A DNA stretch of 43,882 nucleotides from Patescibacteria group bacterium (GTDB lineage Bacteria > Patescibacteriota > Patescibacteriia > UBA9934): contig JBAZXR010000001.1 in the NCBI GenBank assembly GCA_041659765.1, positions 853,338 through 897,219 on the forward strand, written 5' to 3'. Both the position numbers and the translations under genes were made by a program. Shown here one piece after another: positions 2,490-40,658 of the stretch. The notes beneath the pieces were generated by a model that made no database searches, was not told the origin of the DNA, and saw nothing but the letters and a program-made list of their open reading frames with translations. Each line of letters starts with the position of its first letter. Position 1 is the stretch's first letter.

Positions 2490-3713
2490 TCACCAGCAGA
2501 TGCGAGTTCGGTGGTTCGAAAAGGCTATTTCTTGGCTATTCAACAGATTTTGAATAAATGTCCAGCCTGGCGTGGACAAACGTGCCGGGAGGAGATCAGT
2601 GAGCCCTCCGATGGAAACCCACTGGTTGGCTCTCGGCAAACACACATTCTTAGCCGAACCGGTTGTGGTTGAACCGTCCAGATTCACTTGGCGGTTGGTT
2701 AGGACGAGACCATGGGCCGTTTGGGCTGCGCGAACGATTGTCCCACTGTTATCTGTGATACTCGTGATAGTTGCTGAGGGATCGCTGGTTGTGATCGGCT
2801 GAGCTGATGAGGTTGAGATGATTTCGTCCAGGCTAGTGTAGACATCCCCGGACGACAGCAAAACTAATGACTTGGTGTAGTAGAGCTCGTTTACCGTACT
2901 TTCCATGTCTTCTTTGGTCAGATTGCCTTCTGGAACCGTTACGGAATAGGGAGTTCCTTCAATGTCTTGACCGAGGGAGACTACAAATCCGTGAGTAATC
3001 ATTTGTTCTTCAAGGGCGCGCAGGCCTGGATAGACTAATGGAACGTCGAAGCCTAAGAGGTTCTGCGCTTCTGCCGCTGTAACGGTCATTTTCGCTAGCG
3101 ATTGGTCAGAATTTGTATTATTTATATCCCCAGAACGGCCGAGCCCGGAAATAGTAAGGCTATGCTCGGTTAGTCTGATGGGCGCGCTCAATTGATCCTC
3201 GGCCGAGTTGATCTCGCCATTAAACCAAGGAAGTAAGGATTTTACTGGCAGTCTAAACGAAAATTTAGTGGATCCCGGGGCTACGGTACCTATGTACGTG
3301 CCACCAAACCGTTGCACGACCACCAAGTTGAATGCCTTTGCTTCATTGAGCTTGGCCTGGGGAATTTTGCCGGCCACAGCTACGCCCACGACCCCAGTTT
3401 CGTTGATAAATATGGCGCTTCCTCGTTTTGACCAACGTCCAAGCTCGTCGAGGGTGAAGGGTGCGTTTTGAAAAAGGACCGTGCCGTGAAACTTGTTCTC
3501 TAAAACTGCGGAAGTTTTCGGCGTTTTTATTATCCTCACGGTCATTTCGGCGTCATTCGGCACAAAGGACGAGATTGTATCGAGGGCGAGATAGGTGCGA
3601 ACTACTAGTATCGACAGACCCGTAGCGAGGAGTAGTGGAGCCACAAATACCACAACCCGCCAGATCTTTTGGCGGGTTGGGTTATCGGTGAGTGGGATGT
3701 TGAGGGGGTTCAT
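2490..3713 (-). CDS. hypothetical protein with an N-terminal membrane anchor
   Basis: 407-aa ORF with one N-terminal hydrophobic helix (IWRVVVFVAPLLLATGLSILVV). No motif recognised. Confidence 0.6.
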   Translation of the reverse strand: MNPLNIPLTDNPTRQKIWRVVVFVAPLLLATGLSILVVRTYLALDTISSFVPNDAEMTVRIIKTPKTSAVLENKFHGTVLFQNAPFTLDELGRWSKRGSAIFINETGVVGVAVAGKIPQAKLNEAKAFNLVVVQRFGGTYIGTVAPGSTKFSFRLPVKSLLPWFNGEINSAEDQLSAPIRLTEHSLTISGLGRSGDINNTNSDQSLAKMTVTAAEAQNLLGFDVPLVYPGLRALEEQMITHGFVVSLGQDIEGTPYSVTVPEGNLTKEDMESTVNELYYTKSLVLLSSGDVYTSLDEIISTSSAQPITTSDPSATITSITDNSGTIVRAAQTAHGLVLTNRQVNLDGSTTTGSAKNVCLPRANQWVSIGGLTDLLPARLSTPGWTFIQNLLNSQEIAFSNHRTRICW

Positions 3714-3754: not shown

Positions 3755-5980
3755 CTAGTCGTACCGTTTGCCTTGGGGCGGTTTTGCGCCGCGTCGGCTG
3801 GTTGATTCGCTGTCTCCGGAGCCGGCTTTGGCTTTCATCTCATCTGTGTAGACGTTGCCCTCGGCTTTTTTCATCGAGAGGTTCACGCGTCCTTTTTCGT
3901 CGATTTCGATGACCTTCACATGCACCTTATCGCCCACATTGACGACATCGGTTACTTTCTCAACTCTCCACGGGGCCATTTCGGACACATGGACAAGCCC
4001 GTCCTTGCCGGGAAGAAGTTCTACGAACGCACCGAAGTCCATGAGGCGCACCACGTTGCCGTGGAATACCTCGTTTACTTCAATGTCACGCGTTAGGTTG
4101 TAGATCCAATCATACGCCTTCTGTGCGGATTCCGCATCAGGCGAGGTGATCATGACCAAGCCAGTCTGTTCAATATCAATGTCAGACACGCCGGTTTTCT
4201 CGATAATCTCGTTGATCGTCTTTCCACCAGGACCAATTACTTCGCGAATCTTATCTGGGTTAATGTTAATGGTGATGATGCGAGGCGCGTTTGGTGAAAG
4301 TTCGGCACGCGGCTCAGGAATTGCCTTGGCCATGACATCCAGAATCTTCATGCGGGCAGACTGCGCGCGGGTGACGGCTTCGACGACTACGGTATGAGGA
4401 AGGCCATCGGTCTTTGTATCAAGCTGAATAGCCGTAATACCTTTGCGCGTACCGGTAATTTTGAAGTCCATGCCACCCTCGCCGTCTTCGAGGTCTTGTA
4501 AGTCGGTGATGACCTGGTAGCGCTTGCCGTCGGACGCGAGGCCCATGGCAATACCGGCGACTGCAGCCTTAATCGGCACGCCAGCATCCATAAGTGCCAA
4601 CGAGGCACCGCAAGTTGAGCCCATCGAGCTTGAGCCGTTAGAACCGAGAACCTCGGAAACTACGCGAAGCGTGTACGGGAAGACTTCTTTTGCAGGGATC
4701 ATGAAGGCGAGTGCTTTTTCTGCTAGCGCGCCATGTCCAACCTCGCGACGGCCAGCGCCACGGAGTGGTTTTGCTTCGCCAACAGAGAACGGAGGAAAGT
4801 TGTAGTGGTGCATGAATCGGCGTTCGCCGACCAGTTCCATGCCGTCGAGCGTCTGCTTGTCGCCAGGAGCACCGAGCGTAACGATGGACAGAACCTGCGT
4901 TTCGCCACGGTTGAACAATGCAGAACCGTGCACGCATGGGAGCAAGGCGACTTCGCTTTCCAGGTTGCGGATTTCATCGAGTCCTCGACCATCAACGCGC
5001 TTGCCTTCTTCAATGATCGTGCGACCGATTTCGAGGTCAAGTAACTCGCCGAGCAATGACTTGCCGAGCGTAATACCTTCTTCGTCCTGGCCTTGTTCCG
5101 TTAAAAATGCGACGGCTTTCTTCTTCATCTCATCTTTTGCAATTGCGCGTTCGACTTTGCTCGCTTTCGGTGCTGCGAAGAATAATTCCTGAATAGTTTT
5201 CTTCATGAACGGCGTTAAAAGCGCTTTGATTTCTTCGCGCTTGCCGGCGACACGTTTGGCTTCGTCCGTCTTTGGCGTCAGAAGGTCAACTTTGGCCTTT
5301 CCTGCTTCCTTGCGCACCGCTTCGATGAGCTCGATAACTGGACCAAGGTTCTCGCGACCATAAGCAATAGCGTCAATGACTTCAGCTTCTGGAGCTTCAT
5401 CGCAACCAGCTTCGATCATAATCACCTTTTCGGCTGTACCAGCAACGTCCACGTCGAACTTTGCAACCTCGCGTTCTGCGTAGGTGCCGTTCAAGATGAA
5501 ATGACCCTCGGCATCAGTGTTGACGCGAGCAACGGCGATTGGGCCGTTCCATGGAATGTCAGACATGTGGAGCGCGCACGATGCGCCGATGAGCCCTGGA
5601 ATGTCGGCATCATTTTCTTCGTCGAAGGCCAGTACCGAAATAATGACCTGCACATCGTTGGCGATGCGCTGATCAAACAGTGGGCGAATAGCGCGATCGA
5701 TGAACCGAGCAGCGAGAACTGCTTCGTCCGTTGGTCGTCCTTCACGCTTAATGAAGCGCGAACCCTTGATGCGTCCCGCGGCGTACAACTTTTCCTCGAA
5801 ATCAACCATGAGCGGGAAGAAACTCAATCCTGGGCGAACATCCTTGCTCATAACTGCAGTCGCGAGCACCACAGTCTTGCCGTATGTAACTACGCAAGCG
5901 CCGTTTGCTGCTTTTGCGAGCTTGCCTGTTTCAATCGTTAACTTCTTTCCTCCAAAATCAATCGAGTGCGATGTGGTCAT
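3755..5980 (-). CDS. pnp: polyribonucleotide nucleotidyltransferase (PNPase)
   Basis: 741 aa with two RNase PH-like halves, KH and S1 regions (GNVVRLMDFGAFVELLPGKDGLVHVSE). Full-length family match by eye. Confidence 0.95.
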   Translation of the reverse strand: MTTSHSIDFGGKKLTIETGKLAKAANGACVVTYGKTVVLATAVMSKDVRPGLSFFPLMVDFEEKLYAAGRIKGSRFIKREGRPTDEAVLAARFIDRAIRPLFDQRIANDVQVIISVLAFDEENDADIPGLIGASCALHMSDIPWNGPIAVARVNTDAEGHFILNGTYAEREVAKFDVDVAGTAEKVIMIEAGCDEAPEAEVIDAIAYGRENLGPVIELIEAVRKEAGKAKVDLLTPKTDEAKRVAGKREEIKALLTPFMKKTIQELFFAAPKASKVERAIAKDEMKKKAVAFLTEQGQDEEGITLGKSLLGELLDLEIGRTIIEEGKRVDGRGLDEIRNLESEVALLPCVHGSALFNRGETQVLSIVTLGAPGDKQTLDGMELVGERRFMHHYNFPPFSVGEAKPLRGAGRREVGHGALAEKALAFMIPAKEVFPYTLRVVSEVLGSNGSSSMGSTCGASLALMDAGVPIKAAVAGIAMGLASDGKRYQVITDLQDLEDGEGGMDFKITGTRKGITAIQLDTKTDGLPHTVVVEAVTRAQSARMKILDVMAKAIPEPRAELSPNAPRIITININPDKIREVIGPGGKTINEIIEKTGVSDIDIEQTGLVMITSPDAESAQKAYDWIYNLTRDIEVNEVFHGNVVRLMDFGAFVELLPGKDGLVHVSEMAPWRVEKVTDVVNVGDKVHVKVIEIDEKGRVNLSMKKAEGNVYTDEMKAKAGSGDSESTSRRGAKPPQGKRYD

Positions 5981-12328: not shown

Positions 12329-14959
12329 ATGTCAACCGAGAAAAAAGTATTTTTAGTGCTTGATGGCAACGCGCTTTTGCACCGCGCCTGGCATGCTATT
12401 CCCCCGCTCACTACCGCCGATGGTCGAGTAGTGAATGCTGCCTACGGCTTTACGAACGTCATCGAGAAAATGCTGTCGACCTTTCACCCGGACTCGATGG
12501 TCGTCGCTTGGGATTTGCCTGGTGGTACGTTTCGGAACGAAGATTACGCACCCTACAAGGCACACCGTGAGAAGAAAGCTGATGAACTTTATGCGCAAAT
12601 TCCTATTATACAGGAGATTTTGCGCGCGTACGGTATTCCATCACTCGATGCGAAGGGATTTGAAGCTGACGATATCATCGGCACCATTGCAACCATGAAT
12701 GAGACTGGCGGAGACTTTGAGACTTTGATTGTAACGGGTGATCTCGATTCCCTTCAGCTTGTTTCGCCGAATACGAAGGTCGTTTTCTTTGTGAAGGGGC
12801 TGTCCGAGGTGAAGATTTACGACGAGAAAGCAGTCGAGGAACGCTACGGATTGCCGCCGAGTGGACTGATTGACCTGAAGACGCTCATCGGCGACACGTC
12901 TGACAACTTGCCGGGCATTGTTGGTATTGGCGAGAAGGGCGCGGCCGAATTATTGAAGGCATATGGCTCGGTGAACGGTATCCTTGAGGCGATGAAGACC
13001 GAGTCGCTTCCAGAGAAATATGTAAGAAAATTCAAAGGCCAGGAAAAGACGGTGGAACTCATGCGCAGGCTGGTGACGGTTGTTCGAGACGTACCACTTA
13101 AGAATTTTTCATATGAATCGGCTAAGCGAACGCCGATTGATCCTGCGAAATTGTTGCCCATGTTCCGTGATTTGGAATTTCGCACGTTGATTAAGAAATA
13201 TGAATCTCGAGAAGGCGGGGTTATCAACCCCGCACCGGATGAAAGACCGAAAAAATCAACAAAGAAATCCGCATTAACGAAATTTGTTGGCAGCATGTTT
13301 GAATTGAACCCGAAACAGATAGGGATTTTATTAGAGGAGAAGCAACAGGATCTGTTTGGCGAGTCTGTGGGAGCGATAATCCTGACGGACGGTTCTTTGT
13401 TTTGGAAGGTTGCTTCGACGAATATTGCCGAACTACGGCACGTGGTCGAGGTTCTTTCCAAGACAGACCTCGTCGTTGGACATGACTTGAAGGCTATTTA
13501 TCATGTGTTTGCGAAGCATGACGTCGAGGTTCTTGAGCCGCTGCGCCAGAAGACGATCTTCGATACGATGGTTGGCGCGTATCTGTTGGCGCCAGGTGGC
13601 CGTGAGTTAGCATTCATAGAGGTTCTGAATGAAAATCTCGGACTTCAGCTTGAAGAAACGGCGACTATCGACGAAATCGCCCCGCACTTGTTCGCGCTCA
13701 AGGAGAAGATTGAGAAGAAACTGGCCGAAGAGAAGATGACGAAGCTTTTTGAAGAGATTGAGATGCCCTTGATTCCTGTTCTGTTCAAAATGGAGCTCGA
13801 CGGCATTTTGGTCGACAAGGAAATGCTGACCTCGCTCGCCGATCAATTCGAGAAGACCATTGATAAGCTGACGAAGAAGATTCACAAACTTGCGGGCAAA
13901 GAATTTAACGTGAACTCCCCTTCTCAGCTGGCCGAGATTCTTTTCGTCGATCTCGGACTCCCGACAAAGGGCATCAAGAAAACTAAGACCGGTTACTCGA
14001 CGGCCGCACAGGAGCTTGAGAAACTTGAAGACGAGCACGAGATTGTCCCTCTAATGTCTGAATATCGTGAGATCGCAAAGCTGAAGTCGACTTACGCTGA
14101 TTCCTTGCCAACACTGATTGCGAAGGATGGCAGAATCCACACCACGTATAACCAAACGGTTGCGGCCACGGGTCGATTGAGCTCGGTGAACCCAAACATG
14201 CAGAACATTCCGATCCGCTCAGAGCTTGGCCGTGAGATTCGCAAGGCATTCATTGCACCGAGTGGTTTCGAGCTTCTCTCCGCCGACTATTCGCAGATCG
14301 AGCTTCGACTTGCAGCCGTGCTATCGCAGGACGAACCATTCCTCAAGGCGTTTAAGGAAGGCGCGGACATTCACCGCCGTACTGCGGCCGACATTCTCGG
14401 TATCGAGGAAGACAAAGTGACTAAAGAACAACGCGAGGCTGCGAAGGCAACGAACTTCTCGATTCTCTACGGAGTTGGCGCGCGAGCTTTATCGAGGCGT
14501 ATCGGCATGAGCTATGAGGAAGCAAGGGATTTTATTGAACGCTACTTTGCCGTGCATCCTGGTATCGCAGCTTTTATCGATGCGTCGAAAGTGAAGGCGA
14601 GAGTCGACGGCTATGTAGAAACGATGTTCGGCCGCCGCAGATATTTGCCCGACATTCAATCAGGAATGCCCCAGCTCGTCGCGGCCTCCGAAAGAATGGC
14701 GATGAACATGCCGGTGCAAGGTTCAAACGCCGACATCATCAAAATGGCCATGATCAAAATGGACGAATGGATCCGTAAGTCGGGACTGCGGGTGAAGATG
14801 TTGCTGCAAGTTCACGATGAACTCGTTTTCGAGGTTCACGCGAGCGACATTGAACAGGCCACCAAAGAAATTCCCAAAATTATGTCGGGCGTGGTCAATC
14901 TGGAGATTCCACTGATCGTTGATACGGGAATCGGAAAGAGATGGGGGGAGATCGAGTAA
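12329..14959 (+). CDS. polA: DNA polymerase I
   Basis: 876 aa with a 5' nuclease domain, then polymerase motifs LSADYSQIELR, RRTAKATNFSILYG and QVHDELVFE. Confidence 0.95.
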   Translation: MSTEKKVFLVLDGNALLHRAWHAIPPLTTADGRVVNAAYGFTNVIEKMLSTFHPDSMVVAWDLPGGTFRNEDYAPYKAHREKKADELYAQIPIIQEILRAYGIPSLDAKGFEADDIIGTIATMNETGGDFETLIVTGDLDSLQLVSPNTKVVFFVKGLSEVKIYDEKAVEERYGLPPSGLIDLKTLIGDTSDNLPGIVGIGEKGAAELLKAYGSVNGILEAMKTESLPEKYVRKFKGQEKTVELMRRLVTVVRDVPLKNFSYESAKRTPIDPAKLLPMFRDLEFRTLIKKYESREGGVINPAPDERPKKSTKKSALTKFVGSMFELNPKQIGILLEEKQQDLFGESVGAIILTDGSLFWKVASTNIAELRHVVEVLSKTDLVVGHDLKAIYHVFAKHDVEVLEPLRQKTIFDTMVGAYLLAPGGRELAFIEVLNENLGLQLEETATIDEIAPHLFALKEKIEKKLAEEKMTKLFEEIEMPLIPVLFKMELDGILVDKEMLTSLADQFEKTIDKLTKKIHKLAGKEFNVNSPSQLAEILFVDLGLPTKGIKKTKTGYSTAAQELEKLEDEHEIVPLMSEYREIAKLKSTYADSLPTLIAKDGRIHTTYNQTVAATGRLSSVNPNMQNIPIRSELGREIRKAFIAPSGFELLSADYSQIELRLAAVLSQDEPFLKAFKEGADIHRRTAADILGIEEDKVTKEQREAAKATNFSILYGVGARALSRRIGMSYEEARDFIERYFAVHPGIAAFIDASKVKARVDGYVETMFGRRRYLPDIQSGMPQLVAASERMAMNMPVQGSNADIIKMAMIKMDEWIRKSGLRVKMLLQVHDELVFEVHASDIEQATKEIPKIMSGVVNLEIPLIVDTGIGKRWGEIE
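13211..13242. repeat. 32-nt hairpin repeat inside polA (copy 1 of 3)
   Basis: GAAGGCGGGGTTATCAACCCCGCACCGGATGA is identical to 38925-38956. It has an 8-bp perfect stem GCGGGGTT/AACCCCGC with loop ATC, and is read as EGGVINPAPDE. Confidence 0.9.
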
Positions 14960-18368: not shown

Positions 18369-18444
18369 GCTCCCGTAGTTCAAATGGATAGAACAGGGGC
18401 GTCCTAAGCCTTAGATCGTGGTTCAATTCCGCGCGGGAGCACCA
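18369..18444 (+). tRNA. tRNA-Arg (anticodon CCT), CCA encoded
   Basis: Acceptor GCTCCCG/CGGGAGC, anticodon loop GTCCTAA, T arm GTGGT-TCAATTC-CGCGC region. Confidence 0.88.
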
Positions 18445-18573
18445 GTACACAAAACCCCCTAAAATACGCCCTGGCGTTGTCGCCGGCTACGTTTCTCCTC
18501 AACGTACCATTAAGTACGTTTCGTCGAAGCCTCGCCGGCTCCTAGCCAGGACCTATTTTAGAGGGTTTTGTAA
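18445..18573 (+). repeat. tRNA-3'-flanking inverted-repeat element, copy 1
   Basis: Starts at the base after CCA. It has 17-nt terminal inverted repeats, ACAAAACCCCCTAAAAT (18449-18465) and ATTTTAGAGGGTTTTGT (18555-18571), and a central hairpin AACGTAC-CATTAA-GTACGTT. Confidence 0.85.
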
Positions 18574-18606
18574 AGCAAATGTCTTGGCAATCGTCGTTAT
18601 AACTAT

Positions 18607-18682
18607 GGGCCAATAGCTCAGTTGGTAGAGCGCGGCATTCGCATTGCCGAGGTCTGGAGTTCGAGCCTCCATTGGTCCACCA
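18607..18682 (+). tRNA. tRNA-Ala (anticodon CGC), CCA encoded
   Basis: G3:U70 in acceptor GGGCCAA/TTGGTCC, anticodon arm CGGCA-TTCGCAT-TGCCG. Confidence 0.9.
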
Positions 18683-18812
18683 GTACACAAAACCCCCTAA
18701 AATCGGCCCATGCGTTGTCGCCTCTGTCGCTCCAGTCTCAACGTACCAGTAAGTACGTCTCGACTGTCGCTCGTCGGCTCCTAGCCTGGACCAATTTTAG
18801 AGGGTTTTGTAA
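18683..18812 (+). repeat. tRNA-3'-flanking inverted-repeat element, copy 2
   Basis: The first 21 nt are identical to copy 1. The terminal inverted repeats lie at 18687-18703 and 18794-18810, and the central AACGTACCAGTAAGTACGT is conserved. Confidence 0.85.
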
Positions 18813-18834
18813 ATTCGGTCGATTGCAGTTGAAG

Positions 18835-20983: not shown

Positions 20984-23437
20984 GTGAGATTTTTTTTCAA
21001 GCGTGCTGCGGTGTTTTGTATTTTCACCCTCTTGCTGATGGGTGTATTTCCTGTTTTTCACACTTTTGCAGTTACTGATGTGGTGACTAGTTTGTCCGAC
21101 CAACCGAGCACGTTGGTTACGAGCGCTTTATCAAATCATTCGTTTTTATTCACTACCGCTGACAATTGGACTGATGGTTTTACTGTGACCTTGGTTTTCC
21201 CGGCCGGGTTTACGACTACCGCTATCATTGAGGATGACGTTGACGTTGCCGATGACGGGGTGGATTTGACCACCGCTGCTACTTGCGCCGGAACAGAGCA
21301 GATGTCTGCGGTCATGAGTGGCGGAACCCTCACTTTGACGGTCTGCACTGGTGATGGGGGAACGGTAGCCTTAGGCAGTGTGGTGACTGTTGAGATTGGG
21401 ACAAACGCGTCCGCGTCTGGCACTGGCTCTAATAAAATCACTAATCCTTCAAGCGCCGGTACCTATTTCGTAAATCTTGCAGGTACGTCTGGCAACCAGG
21501 GTTCTATCCCTTTACCTATTGTTAGTTCATTAAGCAGTGGCGTTTCCGGATCAGTTGGTTCATTCGTTCCACCGCCATCGGGCGGCGCGCCGCCATCACC
21601 TCCGCCTGAACCTCCGCCAGCACCTGCTCCGGAACCGGCTCCAGAACCAACTCCTGAGCCTGCGCCTACGCCAACTCCCGAGCCAGCACCAGCTCCCACT
21701 CCCGAGCCCGCGCCTGCACCAGCCCCTGCGCCATCACCGGCGCCAAGTCCTGCGCCGAGCGCGCCACCTGGAGGGGGTGGTGCTTTGCCAACTGATATTG
21801 ACGTGTCGGCTACGTTGTCAGCTGGCGGGATTCCGCTTGCCCTAGAAGGCGGCGCAGTTAGTCTTTTACCTGGCACGACTCCGGTTGTCAGGGTATCGGT
21901 TACTAACCCTGATGATGTTGGTTCAGTAACAGTGGTAATCGCAGACTCTACTTACATCTTGTCCCAGGTTGCGCCTGATACATATCAAGGCTTGATTCAG
22001 GCTCCCTCGGCGAATGACGTCTTGAACGTCATAGTGGCGAGGAAGAGCGGAGGTTCAAAAATCATTTCGATGGCCATTCAGATTGCGTCATACGGGCAGG
22101 TCTATGAAATTATTGATGGCTTACGACGACCAGTGGAGAACGTTATTGTGACGGCCTATACTGGGGGTCGAATACTTTGGAATGCTTCTGATTTTGGCGG
22201 GGTGAATCCAGAGCGGACTTCATTTTCCGGCAGTTTTGGTTGGTATGCGCCAAATGGTTCGTATGTCCTAGTGGCTGAGCGAGACGGGTATGAATCGGCG
22301 AGCGTGACAGTCGGGGTGAGTGATCACGTTTTATCTTCCTCTATTCAACTAACAAGATCTTCCGAGGTTATCGTACCGCCTGTTGTTCCGCCGGTCGTAC
22401 CCCCAATTATTGCCGCGCTTCCTCCGAGCGTTGGTCAGGCGGTGGTTTCGGCTAGCGCCGCTGTTGCCGTGGCTACTGAGGCAGTGGCGGCGGTGTTTGC
22501 CTCCCCGGAAGCGCAGGCTACGGCCACGGTGGCAGCCCCGGTAGCCGCGGCTGTGGCGGCCTCGTCAACGATTGTGCTGGCTTCGAGTTTTAATTTGGCA
22601 GCTTATCTTCAGTATTTAATTACTTCGCCGTTATTGCTTCTCAATAGACGCAAACGAAAAGCGTACGGCATGGTTTATAACGCGATGACCAAAATCCCGA
22701 TTGAGCTGGCGGTGGTACGACTTTATAGAGTTTCGGACAACCGACTCATAAAGTCAGTAGTCACCAACGCTGAAGGAAAATACTTTCTGTTCGTCCCTGA
22801 GCCGGGCGTATATACCTTGAAAGTAGCCAAAGGTGGCTTTGTTTTCCCGAGTGATTATTTGAAAGGCATCAAAGACGATGGGACGTTTCTTGACGTGTAC
22901 ACTTCTCAATTGATTACAGTCAACGAGCGCGACGCCACGATTGCGGCTAATATCCCAATGGATCCGTCGCAATCTAGCGAGCACCATGGTGAGATGCGTT
23001 TGCGAACCAAGCGGTTCCTGCGTTCATTGCAGAAAGTGGCGGCTCCAGCTGGTGTTGTGTTATCGGTTTTCGTTTTTCTAACTTTTCCTGGAGTATTTTC
23101 CGGCCTTGGATTGGTGGTACAGGTAATTGCACTCATGATTTCTATCCGACTCGCTTGGCCAAAGAAACCAAAAGGTTGGGGTCTGGTTGATGAAGCTACC
23201 GGTAAGGCGCCGTTGGGGAATGTTGTCGTTCGTCTCTTCGAACCGCGGTATAATAAGCTAGTCGAGTCTACGCTCACGGATAACCGTGGCCGATATTCTT
23301 TCCTTTTGGGTCCGAACGAGTACTACGTAAGCTACTCTAAGACGGGGTTTGCGGAAAAAATTGTTCGTCCCATTGACTATAGGGACAAGAAAGAGCCGAC
23401 ACCATTAACGGTGAAGGTGGCACTCGACAAAGCTTAG
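20984..23437 (+). CDS. large membrane-embedded surface protein with a proline-rich linker and three CarboxypepD_reg-like beta-sandwich modules
   Basis: GTG start and signal peptide. The modules are VIVTAYTGGR...GSYVLVAERDGYES, VVRLYRVSDNRLIKSVVTNAEGKYFLFVPEPGVYTLKVAKGGF and VVVRLFEPRYNKLVESTLTDNRGRYSFLLGPNEYYVSYSKTGF, interleaved with hydrophobic helices. Confidence 0.7.
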   Translation: MRFFFKRAAVFCIFTLLLMGVFPVFHTFAVTDVVTSLSDQPSTLVTSALSNHSFLFTTADNWTDGFTVTLVFPAGFTTTAIIEDDVDVADDGVDLTTAATCAGTEQMSAVMSGGTLTLTVCTGDGGTVALGSVVTVEIGTNASASGTGSNKITNPSSAGTYFVNLAGTSGNQGSIPLPIVSSLSSGVSGSVGSFVPPPSGGAPPSPPPEPPPAPAPEPAPEPTPEPAPTPTPEPAPAPTPEPAPAPAPAPSPAPSPAPSAPPGGGGALPTDIDVSATLSAGGIPLALEGGAVSLLPGTTPVVRVSVTNPDDVGSVTVVIADSTYILSQVAPDTYQGLIQAPSANDVLNVIVARKSGGSKIISMAIQIASYGQVYEIIDGLRRPVENVIVTAYTGGRILWNASDFGGVNPERTSFSGSFGWYAPNGSYVLVAERDGYESASVTVGVSDHVLSSSIQLTRSSEVIVPPVVPPVVPPIIAALPPSVGQAVVSASAAVAVATEAVAAVFASPEAQATATVAAPVAAAVAASSTIVLASSFNLAAYLQYLITSPLLLLNRRKRKAYGMVYNAMTKIPIELAVVRLYRVSDNRLIKSVVTNAEGKYFLFVPEPGVYTLKVAKGGFVFPSDYLKGIKDDGTFLDVYTSQLITVNERDATIAANIPMDPSQSSEHHGEMRLRTKRFLRSLQKVAAPAGVVLSVFVFLTFPGVFSGLGLVVQVIALMISIRLAWPKKPKGWGLVDEATGKAPLGNVVVRLFEPRYNKLVESTLTDNRGRYSFLLGPNEYYVSYSKTGFAEKIVRPIDYRDKKEPTPLTVKVALDKA
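21569..21782 (+). repeat. low-complexity (E)P(A/T/S)P tract, about 70 codons
   Basis: PPPSGGAPPSPPPEPPPAPAPEPAPEPTPEPAPTPTPEPAPAPTPEPAPAPAPAPSPAPSPAPSAPPGGGG. Confidence 0.9.
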
Positions 23438-23444
23438 GAGGTAC

Positions 23445-26400
23445 ATGAACCAACGTGCACACCATGGATTCCCGCAAGTGATTGCGAGGTTTCTCCTCGT
23501 GTCCGTTTTGTTCGGCAGCGCGGCGCTCTCCGCGCTTTTCGGCGTGTCTGTCCAGGCCGCAAGTGCTCCAAACATCATTAGTTATCAAGGAAGAGTACTG
23601 AATACGAACGGCGTTCCTGTTGCCTCCGCCTCCGCTACCATGGTCTTTGAAATTTATGACTCGCTCGCAGCCGGCACGTGTCTCTGGTCTAACTCGTCCG
23701 CTACCTGTGCAAGTGCAACCTCGCGAACCGTTACACTAACCGACGGCTTGTTCTCCGAGCCACTCGGCGACACGACCGTTGGAGTTCCATACGCGGCTAT
23801 TGCTGACACAGTTTTTGGCAGTAATGCTGGTACCTACCTGCAAGTCACGGTGAACGGCGAGACGCTCACTCCCCGCAAACAGATTGTGGCTGCTCCGTAT
23901 GCACTTAATGCTGACACGCTTGATGGCTTGGACTCGTCTGCCTTTACATCTCTCTTTACTGACGGCGGCACTTTTACATACCTAACTTCAGCCACAGACG
24001 ACCTTGTTATTGGCGGGGTTACGGTGCCGGCGGCCTCGCTCTTCTTTGATGCATCAGTCGCGGAACTTAATCTTGGAACGGAGGGCGCCCTGAACGGACT
24101 CGTACGGCTTTATAGTTCTGGTGCTGTTGTTGATGCGACAATTGGTACGAACGTGTCAGGTGATTTAGTTTTGACGACTCCTGGAATCATTTCTGTTGCG
24201 AGTAACATCACGAGTAGCGCAGACCTGGCTCTAAACGGCGGCGATCTTACTTCTACCTCTGCTGTCTTTAAGCTGGCTGACGCTGTCGGAAACTCGGCCA
24301 CTATTCAAATTGGTGGTGTCAGTACTGACCTTCTAAATACCGTGAACATTGCTACGGATTCTACGAGTGCCGATTTCATAGTTATTGGCAGCATAAACGC
24401 TGCCAGTACCGCTCAATTACGTGGTGCCATTACTACTCTGAACGGCACCTCGGCCATTAATCTGAATGACGCTACGGGCGCTAAGATCACGGACGTCGGC
24501 GGTGTTGACAATGACGGCGGAGATACGGTCCGCATCGCAACTGAAGGTACGTCGGCTGATGTTATTACCATTGGTAATAGCAATGCTTTGACCACATTAG
24601 GACTCACCGGTGGCGATGATTGGAGTGTCACGACCGCGGGACTGATTACTACGGCTAATGACGTGTTTATTAATGGAGGCGATTTGCAATCAACTTCCGC
24701 CACTTTTAACTTTTTGGATAACACTGGCGACGCGACAACGATTGATATTGGAGGCGTAACTACTGCTCTCAGCAATACCATTAACATCGCTACTAATGCC
24801 ACAGGTTCCGATACCATTAACATTGGTAATAATGGAGCGGCTACTTCACTGGTTCTTACGTCTCAGGCCTGGAGCATCACTGGCCCTGGTCTGATAACTA
24901 CGGGGGACGATCTAGCTGTTAATGGTGGTGACTTGACCTCTACTTCGGCTACCTTTAATTTTCTTGATGCGGCCAGTAGTTCCACAACGATTGATATTGG
25001 CGGCGTGACCACTTCGCTTAGTAATACGATCAATATCGCCACTAATGCCACCGGTTCCGATACCATTAACATTGGTAACAATGGAGCCGCTACTTCTTTG
25101 GTGCTGACGTCTCAAGCCTGGAGTATCACCGGTCCGGGTTTGATAACTACATCTGATGATGTGGCGATTGGCGGCGGAGACTTAACCTCCACCGCTGGAA
25201 CCTTTAACTTCTTAGATGCTGCCGCAAACTCGGCCGCCATAGATATTGGAGGGGTCACTACTGATATCGGAAATACCATTTATATTGCGATAAACTCAAC
25301 TACCGCGGATACGCTTAGTTTTGGAAATGCTAACGCCTCCACTGTATTCTATCTTGATGGTGGTGATGACTGGGCTATTAACGCTACGGGCGATGCGCAA
25401 TTTGAAAATGTTTTGATTGACATGACGAATACCGCTACCACGAACGGTGTCTGTCACTCTGGTGTAGATTCAGATACCACAGCGACAGTTCGGGAGATGG
25501 TTGTTTGTTCTGCAGCTCCAGACGACTACGCCGAGTGGTATGAAACAGACGGTTCTGCGGTTGCCGGTGATCTTGTAGCGACGACGTCAACTACTTTTAC
25601 GTACAATGCCAAGCAGAGCAACCCGTTTACCGGTGAGATTTTGCCTGGCACGATTAGTAAAACCTTGCCGGTACTCACGAAGGCGACATCGAGTTCGGTC
25701 GACGTATTCGGCATCATCTCTACTTCGCCAAACCAGGTGATTGGTAGCGATGTGAAGAATCAGGGCGCGCATCCTCAGCCGATTGGTCTAGTTGGCCGTG
25801 TTCCGCTTCATGTGACTAGCGAGAACGGCCCGATTGCTGCGGGTGATTATCTAACTGTGTCATCGACTCCCGGTTACGCTATGAAGGCCACTGCTCCTGG
25901 TCGAGTGATCGCTCGCGCACTGACAAACTTTAACGGCGTCGGCGTGACTACTATTACCGCGTTTATTGACAATTCTTGGTACGGCGGCGAAATGCTCGCA
26001 GCCGATGGCTCGGCCTTGGCACTGACCGGGGACCTTAAGCTTTCGTCGCTTGCTCAGGCAACGCCATCGAGCCAGGCTATAAACTCGCATGCGCTTTTAC
26101 TCACGGGTAGCGGTTGGGATGGCTCAAGTGCTCTAGACGTAACGATGGGTTTGCGAACTAAAGTAAATTCGCTCAGTAATTATCGCCTCGCTTTTGAAAA
26201 TAACCTTGGCGGCGAGATCGCGTCGATTACCAACTCCGGTGATGTGCTGGTGTCCGGCAAGTTGTATCCCTCTGACAGGGGTTTGACTCAAACCAACGCG
26301 TACATTTTCTATGATTCATCGGCTGGCGGGGGATACATGAAGACGAATGCTGCCGGTTGGAACGTGGGTTCGTACGACTTTGCTGAAATGTTCCCATCTG

Positions 26401-27506
26401 ACGACGAACTGACCGCTGGCGAGGTTGTTGTTTTCGCCGACCGTTCACAGGCGGTGAAGAAGTCAGGTTCGACGACTTATGATGATAAGCTCGTCGGTGT
26501 TGTTTCAACACGTCCAGGTTTCTTGGCCGGTGAATACAAAGCTGGTTCATACCCGATCGCCCTTTCAGGTCGAGTGCCAACGAATGTGTCGGACGAGAAC
26601 GGCGCTGTGGCTATCGGCGACCCGCTGACTACCTCCTCGACGCCTGGCGTAGCGATGAAGGCCACGAAAGCTGGTCCGATTCTTGGCTATGCCATGGAGC
26701 CGCTGCCTGGTGGAACCGGTAAGGTAGTCGCCTTTATTCGAGCTTCTTATTACTCAGGAAACGGAACTAACTCAGCACCGGATGTCAGTAACACGGTTAC
26801 CGGCTTGTCAACGGCCGGTAGCCTTGATCTCTCAGGCTCTTTGAATATGAACGGCGGCAATATTCTGTCAGTCGGTTCTATAGGGGGTATCGGCGGAGTT
26901 TGGAAGATCGCTGATAATGGAGATTTTACAACCGGAGGGGCATTGGTTAAGCAGGTTCGTTCATTTATGGGTGATCTAGTAGACACTTATCCTTCTACCG
27001 CAACGGAGCGAACGGTTGAGCTGTCGGGGACAAGTACATTGCAGAACGGCTTAGCTACAGTTACCTTCTCAGAGGAGGATCCGCATTTTAATCAGATCAT
27101 TTCTAACACTGCGGCTTATCGTGTACTAGTTACTCCGGCGGGCGCCACCGGACAGGTTTTTGTAACAGATCGTTCAAATGGAGGATTTATCATTCACGAT
27201 ACCGGCTCATCTACCGGAGTGATGGTTGACTGGCTCGTGATTGCCTACGAAAAAGATCATGAACCTCAAGTGGTGACTCCCGTTGTTGTACCTGAACCCA
27301 TTCCGGAGCCAATCGTGGCTGGCATAGTTGATCCTGTGCCGGCTGATCCTGTCGTAGTTGTAGATACAGTGCCAACTGAACCGATTCCCGTTGTCGACCC
27401 GGTACCAATCCAGGCGGTCATAGAGGTCGCGCCTGTTGAAACGCTTATTGATCCAGTGCCTGTGCCTGAGCCAACCTTGCCGACTGATCCTCTTCTGACA
27501 CCATAG
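23445..27506 (+). CDS. giant secreted fibre/adhesin-like protein (1353 aa) with phage tail-fibre-type modules
   Basis: GGAGG RBS and signal peptide. Five IGGV...IAT..T.AD.I.IG modules. Two DYAE-type modules, DDYAEWYETDG at 25521 and YDFAEMFPSDD at 26373. Pro/Val-rich C-terminal tail. Confidence 0.8.
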   Translation: MNQRAHHGFPQVIARFLLVSVLFGSAALSALFGVSVQAASAPNIISYQGRVLNTNGVPVASASATMVFEIYDSLAAGTCLWSNSSATCASATSRTVTLTDGLFSEPLGDTTVGVPYAAIADTVFGSNAGTYLQVTVNGETLTPRKQIVAAPYALNADTLDGLDSSAFTSLFTDGGTFTYLTSATDDLVIGGVTVPAASLFFDASVAELNLGTEGALNGLVRLYSSGAVVDATIGTNVSGDLVLTTPGIISVASNITSSADLALNGGDLTSTSAVFKLADAVGNSATIQIGGVSTDLLNTVNIATDSTSADFIVIGSINAASTAQLRGAITTLNGTSAINLNDATGAKITDVGGVDNDGGDTVRIATEGTSADVITIGNSNALTTLGLTGGDDWSVTTAGLITTANDVFINGGDLQSTSATFNFLDNTGDATTIDIGGVTTALSNTINIATNATGSDTINIGNNGAATSLVLTSQAWSITGPGLITTGDDLAVNGGDLTSTSATFNFLDAASSSTTIDIGGVTTSLSNTINIATNATGSDTINIGNNGAATSLVLTSQAWSITGPGLITTSDDVAIGGGDLTSTAGTFNFLDAAANSAAIDIGGVTTDIGNTIYIAINSTTADTLSFGNANASTVFYLDGGDDWAINATGDAQFENVLIDMTNTATTNGVCHSGVDSDTTATVREMVVCSAAPDDYAEWYETDGSAVAGDLVATTSTTFTYNAKQSNPFTGEILPGTISKTLPVLTKATSSSVDVFGIISTSPNQVIGSDVKNQGAHPQPIGLVGRVPLHVTSENGPIAAGDYLTVSSTPGYAMKATAPGRVIARALTNFNGVGVTTITAFIDNSWYGGEMLAADGSALALTGDLKLSSLAQATPSSQAINSHALLLTGSGWDGSSALDVTMGLRTKVNSLSNYRLAFENNLGGEIASITNSGDVLVSGKLYPSDRGLTQTNAYIFYDSSAGGGYMKTNAAGWNVGSYDFAEMFPSDDELTAGEVVVFADRSQAVKKSGSTTYDDKLVGVVSTRPGFLAGEYKAGSYPIALSGRVPTNVSDENGAVAIGDPLTTSSTPGVAMKATKAGPILGYAMEPLPGGTGKVVAFIRASYYSGNGTNSAPDVSNTVTGLSTAGSLDLSGSLNMNGGNILSVGSIGGIGGVWKIADNGDFTTGGALVKQVRSFMGDLVDTYPSTATERTVELSGTSTLQNGLATVTFSEEDPHFNQIISNTAAYRVLVTPAGATGQVFVTDRSNGGFIIHDTGSSTGVMVDWLVIAYEKDHEPQVVTPVVVPEPIPEPIVAGIVDPVPADPVVVVDTVPTEPIPVVDPVPIQAVIEVAPVETLIDPVPVPEPTLPTDPLLTP
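24230..25400 (+). repeat. in-frame tandem modules, period 249 nt (83 aa) for the three best units
   Basis: Landmarks recur at 24672/24921 and 24777/25026. The protein modules are IDIGGVTTALSNTINIATNATGSDTINIGNN, ...TTSLSNTINIATNATGSDTINIGNN and ...TTDIGNTIYIAINSTTADTLSFGNA. Confidence 0.85.
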
Positions 27507-36810: not shown

Positions 36811-37734
36811 ATGCTCGGTAAGGACGACTTGAAACTTCGTGCGGAATTATGGAATGGCGTGATCTCCCAAGTTCACGCCTTTTTCCAATCCAAAAATTAT
36901 TTGGAAGTCCGCACCCCAGTTCTCGTGAAATGCCCTGGCATGGAACCGAACCTGGATCCTGTCGGTGTCGACGTGCGACTGATCGACGGAACCAAGCATC
37001 GAAGAGGATTGATAACCAGCCCCGAATATTCAATGAAGAAACTCCTTGGCGCAGGACTCGATAAGATTTACACGCTGACACCGGTTTTTCGTAACGTGGA
37101 AAAGATGGGGGAGAGATGGAGTGTCGAATTTACGATGCTCGAGTGGTATCGAACGAACGCGGATTATCACGAGTGCATGAAGGAGACGGAAGAATTGGTT
37201 GATATGATTTTAGGCTCAGAAAAGGCGGGGTTATCAACCCCGCGGTGGCCCCGCATCAGTTACGTCGACGAATATCAAAAGTATTTTGGCGTACATCCGG
37301 CCGATGAGACGCTTGACGCTTCAAAAGTGGCTGATCGATTTCAGTTTGAGGTTATGCCGAAGCTTGAAGCGCAGTATCCTCGATTTTTCCTGACCGAGTA
37401 TCCGGTGGCCGAGGCCGCCCTCGCCCAAAAGAATGCGGATGGACGCTCGGCTCAGCGATTTGAGGGATATGTGAATGGGCTGGAGATCTGTAACGGGTTC
37501 ACGGAGCTGGTAGACTCGACCGAACAACGGAAGAGATTCGAGCTAGAGGCCGAGGAGCGCAGATTGGCGGGTAAAGAAGTCTTCCCAATTGACGAGGAAC
37601 TGCTCGCCGGGCTATCCTCCGTGCCGTCGCCGACCTTCGGCAATGCTTTGGGCATAGATAGACTGATTATGCTTAAAGCAGGTGCGAAAGATATCGATTC
37701 TATTCATTTGTTCCCTCCTTCCACGAGGTTTTAA
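36811..37734 (+). CDS. epmA: EF-P lysine aminoacylase (EpmA/GenX/PoxA, LysRS-core paralogue)
   Basis: 307 aa with class II aaRS motifs (YLEVRTPVL, FRNVE, EFTMLEWY, GNALGIDRLIML), immediately upstream of efp. Confidence 0.85.
   Translation: MLGKDDLKLRAELWNGVISQVHAFFQSKNYLEVRTPVLVKCPGMEPNLDPVGVDVRLIDGTKHRRGLITSPEYSMKKLLGAGLDKIYTLTPVFRNVEKMGERWSVEFTMLEWYRTNADYHECMKETEELVDMILGSEKAGLSTPRWPRISYVDEYQKYFGVHPADETLDASKVADRFQFEVMPKLEAQYPRFFLTEYPVAEAALAQKNADGRSAQRFEGYVNGLEICNGFTELVDSTEQRKRFELEAEERRLAGKEVFPIDEELLAGLSSVPSPTFGNALGIDRLIMLKAGAKDIDSIHLFPPSTRF
37222..37243. repeat. hairpin repeat inside epmA (copy 2 of 3, core only)
   Basis: AAGGCGGGGTTATCAACCCCGC has the same 8-bp stem and ATC loop. Here it is read one frame off, as KAGLSTP. 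Confidence 0.85.
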
Positions 37735-38311: not shown

Positions 38312-38336
38312 AAGCCGGCTGAATAGGCCGGTTTTG
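38312..38336 (+). terminator. intrinsic terminator after efp
   Basis: AAGCCGGC-TGAATAG-GCCGGTTT followed by TG. Confidence 0.55.
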
Positions 38337-38360: not shown

Positions 38361-40658
38361 ATGGCGAAGCGTAAAAAGCAGGAACCGGAAGATTTTGGTT
38401 TATCTGAGGAAGTTCGGCGCAGCATTGTTGCTGTAGTCCTGATTGCCATTGGGGCAGTGGGGCTGCTTTCTGTTTTTGGCCTTGCGGGCGCTGTCGGTCA
38501 TAAGGTGGACGACGTTCTGGCGATGGGACTTGGCCTGGCACGGGTGATTGTGCCTGGTCTTCTGATTCTCGTTGGTATCGGCATGGTCGCCGAGCGATTA
38601 AACGTCCTTCGACCCCGGGTGCTTTTGGCTCTGATCGTTTTTATTATTAGCTTTAGCGGGTTGGTAAACCTTTTCTTTGCTTCCGGAATCGACGATCCAG
38701 CCGTGCTAAAGAATGCCGGGGGAGCGCTCGGTCTGCTTTTTTCGAGCATCCTTGTCCGATACATGGGATTTGGCGCGGCGCTTATTGTGGCGCTTGCATG
38801 TTTGGTCGTTGCAGGTCTTCTGATCATGAATAAGCCAATTCAGACGCTAATGGCGATGTTCAAGAAGGAAGAGAGCGAGGATGAGCCGAAATTTGTCGGC
38901 GACGGTATTCCGGACGTCGATGACGAAGGCGGGGTTATCAACCCCGCACCGGATGATGACGCCGATGATGACACCGAATCCGAAGAACCCGAGGTGAATG
39001 AAAAAGCCGTTGCATATTTTGCGGCAAACAAAGCCGGGGGAGGCGCTGGAGAGACGGTTATGACGTCCGCTGCTCGCAGAAAGATTGAAATCCCGCTCGA
39101 TCTGCTTGATAACAAGCGTTCAGAAGCGAAACCGGGGGATATCGACAGAAACCAGGAGATCATTGCAAGAACCATGGAGCAGTTTGGTATTCCGGTTGAG
39201 ATGAGCGACGTTCGCGTTGGTCCAACTGTGACGCAATATGCGTTCCGTCCTGCCCAGGGCGTGAAACTCGCTCGCGTGGTTGCCCTGCAGAACGACCTCG
39301 CGCTCGCTCTCGCGGCTCACCCTATTCGTATCGAGGCGCCAATTCCAGGAAAGGCGCTTGTTGGTGTTGAAGTTCCTAATCAGACCGTTGCGCGCGTGGG
39401 TCTTCGCGAGCTGCTCGAGAGTAAGGAGTTCCGCACGCACAAGAGTTCGTTCGCCGTGCCACTCGGCAAGGATATTTCGGGTGCGACGCAGATGCTGGCT
39501 GTCGACAAAGCTCCGCACATGCTCGTTGCAGGTGCGACTGGTTCTGGTAAGTCTGTCTGTTTGAATGACATCATCATTTCGCTTTTGTACCAAAACGGCC
39601 CAGATGATCTGAAGTTCATCATGGTCGACCCAAAGAGAGTCGAACTTGGCGTGTATGCGGGTATTCCGCACCTCCTCGTGCCGCCGATCGTGAAGGCTGA
39701 AGAGGCCGTCAACGCTTTGAAGTGGGCTATTCGAGAGATGGAACGCCGTCTCGACTACTTGGCGAAGTTCGGCGCGCGCGACATTGATTCCTACAACGCA
39801 AAGGCGGCCGAAAGAATGCCTCGTATCGTTATTATTATCGACGAGTTGGCCGATTTGATGATCCAGAACAAACGCGATGTTGAAGCCGTCATTGTTCGCT
39901 TGGCTCAGATGGCGCGTGCAGCCGGCATTCACCTCGTCCTTGCTACCCAGCGACCGTCCGTAGACGTCATTACTGGTACGATTAAGGCGAACATCCCAAC
40001 CCGTTTAGCTTTCGCCGTGGCGTCACAGGTCGACAGTAAGACTATCCTCGACACTGCTGGTGCCGACAAACTACTCGGACGCGGAGACATGTTGATTTCG
40101 ACACCTGATTTGAGCAAACCCCGCCGTGCGCAGGGTGCGTACGTTTCTGATGATGAGATTGCCCGCGTGGTAGACTTCTTGAAGAAGGAGAGCGAACCAG
40201 ATTACGATTATAAAATTACGGAAGGTGGTAAGGGAACTGGAGACTCCGGGGGAGTATCCCTAGGTTCTGATGATGCCGATGAATTGCTCGAGGACGCGAT
40301 CAATATCGCTATCGAAGCCGGCCGCGTTTCGACGTCATACCTTCAGCGCCGCATGAAAATTGGCTACTCCCGCGCCGCGAGAATTGTTGATCTCATGGAA
40401 GAAATCGGTGTGGTCTCCGCTGGCGAAGGCGCAAAGCCTCGTACCGTGTTGGTCACCGAATGGCCACCAGCAGGCGTGGGCGTGAACACCGACCTGACGG
40501 GCGCACCAATGCCTCGCGCAGCTGATGAAGAAGAGGACGAGGAAGACGAAGAAATCGAAGACGAGGAATCCGACGATGAAGTCGCGGACGTAGTGGTCGT
40601 TGACGCCATCGAGGGAGACGAAGATGAGGAGGAAGACGAAGAAGAATCTACGAAATAA
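38361..40658 (+). CDS. ftsK: DNA translocase FtsK/SpoIIIE with a long acidic C-terminal tail
   Basis: N-terminal TM helices, Walker A VAGATGSGKS, IIIDELADL, a gamma-like winged helix YLQRRMKIGYSRAARIVDLMEEIGVVS, then about 45 residues that are mostly D/E. The ORF opens at 38334. Confidence 0.92.
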   Translation: MAKRKKQEPEDFGLSEEVRRSIVAVVLIAIGAVGLLSVFGLAGAVGHKVDDVLAMGLGLARVIVPGLLILVGIGMVAERLNVLRPRVLLALIVFIISFSGLVNLFFASGIDDPAVLKNAGGALGLLFSSILVRYMGFGAALIVALACLVVAGLLIMNKPIQTLMAMFKKEESEDEPKFVGDGIPDVDDEGGVINPAPDDDADDDTESEEPEVNEKAVAYFAANKAGGGAGETVMTSAARRKIEIPLDLLDNKRSEAKPGDIDRNQEIIARTMEQFGIPVEMSDVRVGPTVTQYAFRPAQGVKLARVVALQNDLALALAAHPIRIEAPIPGKALVGVEVPNQTVARVGLRELLESKEFRTHKSSFAVPLGKDISGATQMLAVDKAPHMLVAGATGSGKSVCLNDIIISLLYQNGPDDLKFIMVDPKRVELGVYAGIPHLLVPPIVKAEEAVNALKWAIREMERRLDYLAKFGARDIDSYNAKAAERMPRIVIIIDELADLMIQNKRDVEAVIVRLAQMARAAGIHLVLATQRPSVDVITGTIKANIPTRLAFAVASQVDSKTILDTAGADKLLGRGDMLISTPDLSKPRRAQGAYVSDDEIARVVDFLKKESEPDYDYKITEGGKGTGDSGGVSLGSDDADELLEDAINIAIEAGRVSTSYLQRRMKIGYSRAARIVDLMEEIGVVSAGEGAKPRTVLVTEWPPAGVGVNTDLTGAPMPRAADEEEDEEDEEIEDEESDDEVADVVVVDAIEGDEDEEEDEEESTK
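38925..38956. repeat. 32-nt hairpin repeat inside ftsK (copy 3 of 3)
   Basis: Identical to 13211-13242 and read in the same frame as EGGVINPAPDD. Confidence 0.9.

Follow-up and report, generated by a model that had tools for sequence, protein, structure and literature searches.

The window analysed here is a 43,882-nt stretch of DNA, 44 kb of the 897-kb source contig JBAZXR010000001.1 (assembly GCA_041659765.1). Its PolA and FtsK orthologues place it in Patescibacteria (Candidate Phyla Radiation, CPR), near Candidatus Uhrbacteria. Three genes of the window, polA, epmA and ftsK, each contain one copy of a very small hairpin-forming repeat, which is the element described below. The genes and the copies are the following:

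12329..14959 (+): polA, DNA polymerase I with 5' nuclease and family A polymerase domains (Pfam; 120 orthologues, mostly Patescibacteria/Uhrbacteria)
36811..37734 (+): epmA/poxA-like gene, a class II lysyl-tRNA-synthetase paralogue beside efp (Pfam tRNA-synt_2)
38361..40658 (+): ftsK (Pfam FtsK_4TM/alpha/SpoIIIE/gamma; orthologue alignment)
13211..13242 (+): copy 1, 32-nt repeat in the polA linker, with the 22-nt unit at 13212-13233, read as EGGVINPAPDE; exact match
37221..37243 (+): copy 2, AAAG+GCGGGGTT-ATC-AACCCCGC in epmA, read as (E)KAGLSTPR; +18 nt relative to the nearest orthologues
38925..38956 (+): copy 3, 32-nt repeat in the part of ftsK that links membrane domain and motor, read as EGGVINPAPDD; exact match

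The polA and ftsK copies share a 32-mer, GAAGGCGGGGTTATCAACCCCGCACCGGATGA, which is found without a mismatch at 13211-13242 and at 38925-38956, in each case on the + strand. An earlier reading of the window, made from the sequence alone, had reported this identity and it is real: none of 100 dinucleotide-preserving shuffles of the window produced a 32-mer match, the number of identical 32-mer pairs expected by chance in a random 44-kb sequence is ~5e-11, and the flanks of the two copies are unrelated (6/30 identities on the 5' side, 7/30 on the 3' side). The core, GCGGGGTT-ATC-AACCCCGC, forms the perfect 8-bp stem with a 3-nt loop that had also been claimed, and by prediction it is the local minimum-energy structure (~-9.7 kcal/mol with DNA parameters). 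The restriction to two genes was incomplete. A third copy, with the 22-nt core AAGGCGGGGTTATCAACCCCGC, was missed by the sequence-only reading and lies at 37222-37243 in the epmA-like gene, on the same strand as the others. This copy, together with those of related genomes, reduces the supposed 32-nt unit to 22 nt: AAG+GCGGGGTT-ATC-AACCCCGC is common to the polA, ftsK and epmA copies. The 19-22-nt core is thus present in three exact copies in 44 kb (~1 per 15 kb), where chance predicts zero. A repeat scan found it to be the sole dispersed short repeat of the window and its sole recurring strong hairpin.

The earlier reading held that the polA and ftsK copies are translated in the same frame. 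They do read alike (EGGVINPAPD(E/D)), but the epmA copy is in a different reading frame and gives KAGLSTPR. Since the same DNA is read in another frame in epmA, the conserved unit is the nucleic acid and not the peptide. No sense frame of the element contains a stop codon, and in the antisense direction only one frame is closed. With z -4.4 in polA and z -4.7 in epmA, the copy is more stable than any other 30-nt window of these genes, and in ftsK it ranks second. A covariance model of the element (R1) scores the polA and ftsK copies at 41.6 bits each and the epmA copy at 38.2 bits. In Rfam 15 the hairpin had no match at the gathering score; the window gave only 4 tRNAs.

All copies seen are on the sense strand, and each encodes part of a disordered linker, of an acidic tail or of a variable surface loop. 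The PolA copy is at aa 295-305, between the Pfam domains 5_3_exonuc (ending at 271) and DNA_pol_A (starting at 498), and the FtsK copy is at aa 198-208, between FtsK_4TM (ending at 174) and FtsK_alpha (starting at 255), so the Pfam limits bear out the inter-domain location predicted earlier for both proteins. The polA linker has a basic context that bears no relation to the acidic linker of ftsK. Gene 36811-37734 was assigned to epmA because the order rpsF-ssb-rpsR-epmA-efp-ftsK is kept across related loci and the top solved-structure matches of its product are PoxA/GenX (3G1Z, 3A5Z). Here the copy lies within the connector that follows the motif-2 helix, where other lineages hold unrelated inserts.

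The EpmA connector (window 37210-37250; orthologous in L033, L035-L038 and L040, the L numbers denoting loci of related genomes) is an indel hotspot: its inserts are unrelated by lineage (GRKSDPSPSLGM, NRNTTPPHVGVGSDGEVEYEA, DSHATPPGVGVESHP, or none). Directly 3' of the epmA copy, at window 37244-37254, GGTGGCCCCGC repeats the CCCCGC of the hairpin 3' arm, so that a longer pairing is predicted as an alternative (-21.7 kcal/mol); in orthologues this position reads TGGCCCAGG or the like.

Orthologous loci of nine related genomes (5-45 kb of visible DNA per relative) were compared. Two of these genomes carry variants of their own, each in 2-3 copies and all within ftsK. In L033/L034 (two independent assemblies; FtsK ~82% identical to that of the window) GAAG-GCGGGGTT-TCA-AACCCCGC occurs twice in ftsK, in the linker and in the acidic tail, together with a variant, called older here, of the form CAAG-GCGAGGT-TTCA-ACCTCGC. 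In L032 (FtsK 91% identical to the window) the ftsK linker contains GAAG-GCGGCATT-ATT-AATGCCGC and the tail GAAG-GCGGCATT-ACT-AATGCCGC. Assemblies from JGI, ENA and Logan yielded the variants independently of one another, with agreement between L033 and L034.

The alignment of the 8 copies from these 3 genomes (window, L033/L034, L032) reveals a constant anatomy. The 5' AAG is invariant (8/8), the full tag NAAG being GAAG in six copies and AAAG or CAAG in the others. It is followed by a stem of 8 bp (7 bp in one copy) with a loop of 3-4 nt, and the 3' flank is variable. Standard pairs are present in 56/56 stem cells of the alignment, and slid-partner controls pair at just 36-46%. Three of the eight stem pairs are altered on both sides and none on one side only. 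There are three stem variants, each fully paired, so it is the hairpin itself that is preserved. A stem variant is common to the copies within one genome, and orthologous copies across genomes differ, which indicates concerted evolution: similarity is greater among the copies of a genome than between orthologous copies of different genomes, and the element has been copied between sites within genomes. With the R1 model the eight copies score 32-42 bits. In a scan of the window and ~144 kb of relatives everything else scored <=16 bits, except the copies' own reverse strands (up to 24).

Copies come and go between close relatives. The window's ftsK and epmA copies are missing from L035 (FtsK 93% identical) and L036 (89%), and the polA copy is missing from PolA orthologues of 83-89% identity. 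Among 240 PolA/FtsK orthologues the encoded signature was found only in the window PolA and in the FtsK of L032 and L033. Neither of the perfect L033 copies is present in L037, whose FtsK is 94.4% identical to that of L033. L037 keeps an orthologue of the older copy in which two pairs are broken (GCGAGAT...ACCTCGG), with a predicted stability of -5.3 against ~-9.4 kcal/mol (DNA); the old copy decays.

Alignment of orthologues, which had been proposed as a check for a lineage-specific insertion, gave a mixed result. Relative to L035/L036 the epmA copy is a clean gain of 18 nt. The polA and ftsK linkers are hypervariable and their net change relative to the nearest relatives is only +3 and 0 nt, so a clean insertion is seen only in epmA. 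A similar peptide encoded by diverged DNA, the pattern that the earlier reading associated with ancestral sequence, is present at the ftsK linker of relatives. However, the divergence there is compensatory on both arms and is shared by the second copy of the same genome, and nearer relatives lack the peptide; ancestry of the protein sequence alone therefore does not account for the segment.

The closest FtsK relative, L040 (GCA_964348985.1, 96% identity), has 100-N scaffold gaps at 3571-3670 and 4869-4968. These fall exactly on the ftsK linker and the epmA 3' end, so these regions broke that assembly and the ftsK site is unreadable there. In relatives without the element a hairpin of the form CCCCC(C)T-NNN-A(G)GGGGG is found at the polA/ftsK linker positions (L030 10893-10905, L036 10605-10617, L027 2149-2161). 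It is the most stable 30-nt window of its gene in L030 (z -5.1) and L036 (z -4.9), although the L036 hairpin folds no better than shuffles (z -0.28). That this hairpin, CCCCCT-NNN-AGGGGG (L027/L030/L036), forms a second repeat family was rejected as unproven: the sequences are low-complexity Pro/Gly codons with no exact repetition.

In public DNA, scanned in single-shot searches of genomes and metagenomes, the 19-mer core was found at 7 loci in 596 Gb of reference genomes, at 19 among metagenome contigs and at 1 among viral contigs, always single and scattered. The flanks of these matches are unrelated and several are terminator-like. As relatives of the element they were rejected on account of the unrelated flanks, and are regarded as chance or convergent hairpins. 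BLAST with the 32-mer gave no match in a plasmid collection, and in a phage collection nothing beyond 18 nt in one Salmonella phage lineage, a chance match (E 0.9). From the scattered single 19-mers and the lack of a plasmid match it follows that the element is restricted to a narrow lineage and does not stem from a vector or an adapter.

These results require a copy-and-paste-type process within genomes, plus something that holds the arms complementary. The favoured explanation is that the element probably belongs to a lineage-restricted, non-autonomous family of miniature palindromic repeats, with an anatomy like that of repetitive extragenic palindromic (REP) sequences, which proliferates in the genome. 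Its unit would be a short 5' tag, NAAG, followed by the GC-rich 8-bp stem and 3-nt loop, ~22 nt in total. The hairpin on single-stranded DNA, together with the tag, may serve as the substrate of a copying activity provided in trans, and by analogy with the chemistry of REP and REP-associated tyrosine transposases (RAYTs) and of IS200/IS605 this could be an HUH-type enzyme cutting at the tag. Gene-dense genomes would keep only copies whose 6-10 encoded Gly/Pro-rich residues do no harm. The perfection of the stems could result from selection at the level of the element, if only foldable copies get copied, or from hairpin-templated correction. Genomes that lost the copying activity would retain only decaying relics. 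A benefit to the host is not needed in this scheme. The sequence-only reading had likewise proposed that a tiny palindrome inserts, or is copied, where coding sequence tolerates it, and the copy read in another frame, the genome-specific variants, the covariation, the relatives without copies and the decayed relic all speak for it.

Several observations weigh against this explanation. Among the 30 open reading frames (ORFs) of the window and the called genes of related loci there is no transposase or HUH/RAYT gene. Neither GTAG nor CGTC stands beside the stem on either strand in any of the eight copies (8/8), and among the same copies there are no inverted dimers (the REPIN form, an inverted REP doublet) and no extragenic copies. 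No more than 8 copies, from 3 genomes, are known. Compared with the nearest relatives, polA is just 3 nt longer and ftsK is unchanged in length, and the polA and ftsK copies match over 32 nt while the other copies match over 22; such a ragged shared tract fits templated copying or gene conversion better than transposition with fixed ends. Finally, the empty sites of relatives resemble the 5' part of the element (AAAAGGGG in epmA of L035/L036, GAAGGGGAGG in ftsK of L035; GAAGGGG), a likeness equally compatible with repair driven by microhomology.

The last points are also those that favour the main rival, in which there is no dedicated mobile machinery and the hairpin is spread and homogenised by short-patch ectopic gene conversion, or by template-switch repair, among linker codons that are G-rich and of low complexity. 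A hairpin or cruciform would make the sites break-prone, and intrastrand templating would keep the arms complementary. This explanation is considered unlikely. The varying length of the shared tract, the absence of net length change at polA and ftsK, the likeness of empty sites to the 5' arm and the fact that no transposase is seen in the window agree with it, and the absence of one-sided stem changes is what is expected if one arm templates the other. Gene conversion nevertheless needs a pre-existing homologous target, which the unrelated basic polA and acidic ftsK linkers do not offer. Moreover, the 18 nt in epmA are a de novo acquisition at a site with a similarity of only ~7 nt, and two perfect copies were gained or lost between genomes with 94%-identical FtsK. 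A host cis-element under positive selection would account for the strict compensatory covariation, for the sense orientation of every copy, for the location at inter-domain linkers and for the rank of the hairpin among the 30-nt windows of the three genes. It could be an RNA stem-loop (for instance one that pauses translation where domains meet, or one that is bound or processed) or an 8-3-8 inverted-repeat site of a co-evolving dimeric protein. That another genome (L030/L036) shows a strong hairpin of other sequence at both of these linkers also speaks for it, but what forms those hairpins is low-complexity Pro/Gly coding sequence, and in L036 the hairpin is indistinguishable from shuffles by its z-score of -0.28. 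The nearest relatives (FtsK 93-94% identical) do without the element's hairpin at all three sites, and an identity of 22-32 nt between sites is superfluous for structure and unreachable by convergence. The hairpin has no Rfam match, and its sequence differs between close genomes, whereas known sites that organise chromosomes, such as parS, keep theirs from species to species. A host function of this kind is thus distinctly improbable.

Enrichment of a motif similar to DNA uptake signals, through biased uptake and recombination in competence-dependent nucleotide scavengers with lineage dialects, is still less credible. Dialects specific to genomes, tolerant coding positions, a single orientation and an unchanged net length at 2/3 sites would suit it. 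Yet the element is present only ~1 per 15 kb, uptake does not require a hairpin and so leaves the compensatory stem changes unexpected, the exact identity over 22-32 nt is far beyond mutation plus drive, and the motif is wholly missing from close relatives (19-45 kb sampled). Assembly or sequencing artefact, chance and ancestral linker sequence are effectively refuted. The L040 gap of 100 N exactly at the ftsK linker does indicate that the region can assemble poorly, but the reading frames are intact in 3/3 genes, the variants appear independently in the JGI, ENA and Logan assemblies with L033 and L034 in agreement, and a plasmid or vector match is absent. Chance is countered by the expectation of ~5e-11, and ancestry by orthologues at 93-94% identity without the element.

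Other candidate identities were discarded. A terminator was ruled out because no T-run follows the hairpin, and a CRISPR (clustered regularly interspaced short palindromic repeat) unit because there is no array. A parS, dif or operator site was dismissed, as the sequence is not conserved between close genomes and lies inside linkers, and a link to elongation factor P (EF-P) and polyproline stalling was dismissed because there is no PP motif.

Among known systems, REP-type stem-loops, intragenic copies included, are the closest match to the favoured copied hairpin in both anatomy and behaviour. REP-type repeats are 20-40-bp units that have stems mostly of 6-9 bp and carry GTAG or CGTC as a tag at one end, their sub-families carry alternative complementary stem residues, and intragenic copies are known in DNA polymerase I, in other replication and repair genes and in tRNA-synthetase genes (Di Nocera et al. 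2013, PMC3733652). The 22-nt unit, 8-bp stem and short loop of the element fall in this range. Like REPs, it forms species-specific families with alternative complementary stem residues, and it is read through in frame inside polA and tRNA-synthetase-type genes, plausibly in flexible linkers. The degree of novelty assumed by the sequence-only reading was accordingly too high: small REP-type stem-loops in genes, polA included, were already described (PMC3733652). The element differs in its tag, which is NAAG and not GTAG, CGTC or the listed degenerate forms, and in its stems, which are perfect, without G-T pairs or bulges. Its copies are all intragenic sense-strand singletons, with none extragenic and no inverted dimers. 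REPs are dispersed in tens to hundreds of copies per genome; the 44 kb of the window, out of the 897-kb contig, contain 3 copies of the element. The host is a Patescibacterium (CPR), and RAYT was not seen in the window or related loci.

In REPIN-RAYT systems, repeat populations decay after loss of the transposase (10.1101/2021.07.10.451892), and the L037 relic resembles this decay. A within-genome master sequence with variants and vertical persistence are further similarities. REPINs, in contrast, are inverted REP doublets, extragenic and present in hundreds of copies, whereas the element consists of single hairpins. The REPIN master is also stable across a species, unlike that of the element, which differs between genomes at 83-93% FtsK identity. 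The conceptual likeness to Rickettsia palindromic elements (RPEs) that had been suggested earlier holds: these too are palindromic, occur in frame in unrelated housekeeping genes of a reduced genome and encode a short tolerated peptide (Ogata et al. 2000; PMC10969869). RPE-1-type elements, however, are ~100-150 bp long with a peptide conserved in one frame, compared with 22-32 nt, two frames and two peptides here, and the short RPE-4/RPE-6 elements are CGTC-tagged (PMC3733652), a tag the element lacks.

Miniature inverted-repeat transposable elements have terminal inverted repeats flanking an internal region, a target-site duplication and a length of ~50-500 bp; the element is a single 19-nt hairpin with a 3-nt tag, and its copies have no flanking direct repeats. 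The DNA uptake sequences of Neisseria and the uptake signal sequences of Haemophilus occur at ~1 per kb and have a 9-12-nt core with no structural requirement. They share with the element a short oriented motif, lineage dialects and tolerant coding positions, but they are ~10-fold denser, are not hairpins alone, and arise by mutation and drive and not by block copying.

All 8 copies are intragenic, and the only adjacent pair (the first and second tail copies of L033) is 30 nt apart in direct orientation. At least five to six of the copies are independent, and all of these are on the sense strand; this strand is also G-rich and is probably the leading strand. The sense-strand bias is marginally significant and cannot separate an effect of transcription from one of replication. 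It is possible, though rather doubtful, that the element represents a hitherto unrecognised class of ultra-small hairpin elements (18-22 nt) in the Candidate Phyla Radiation, adapted to coding sequence and spread by a mechanism other than the known GTAG-cutting RAYTs. The mover would then be a new hairpin-specific enzyme, HUH or other, that recognises NAAG, or hairpin-templated repair, and the variants would co-evolve with their machinery. The absence of stops in the three sense frames, the net gain of 18 nt (6 codons) and the restriction to the sense strand would fit such a class.

What is new about this REP-like hairpin repeat is its tag, its host phylum, from which such elements have not been known, and its occurrence, as far as seen, only in genes. 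To our knowledge, CPR/Patescibacteria, with their tiny gene-dense genomes, have not been known to host REP-like repeats. An element confined to genes shows selfish DNA adapting where intergenic space is nearly nil, and linker or loop sequence of PolA, FtsK and EpmA can arise by processes that do not act at the protein level. The clean contrast between genomes with intact copies, genomes with none and one genome with a decaying relic provides a handle by which phylogenetic profiling of complete genomes could find an enzyme responsible. Such repeats can also mislead alignment-based inference in linkers, and may serve as strain-level markers.

A few further features of the window were noted. The mechanical ORF of ftsK begins at a TTG at 38334, and orthologues begin with MAKRKKQ, which corresponds to the ATG at 38361. 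The listed efp ORF (37682) and the end of epmA overlap, and efp probably starts further downstream. At 18369-18813, tRNA-Arg(CCT) and tRNA-Ala(CGC) are each followed by a near-identical trailing segment, 238-239 nt apart (18440-18484 vs 18678-18722, 91%; 18498-18574 vs 18737-18813, 86%), and these segments look like a duplicated module. The 1353-aa ORF 23445-27506, which has no Pfam match, includes a 249-nt tandem duplication of 78% identity at 24735-25232. Proline-rich repeats with a 12-nt period are found at 21591-21756, in the 817-aa ORF 20984-23437, which has CarboxypepD_reg domains and whose product is probably a surface protein.

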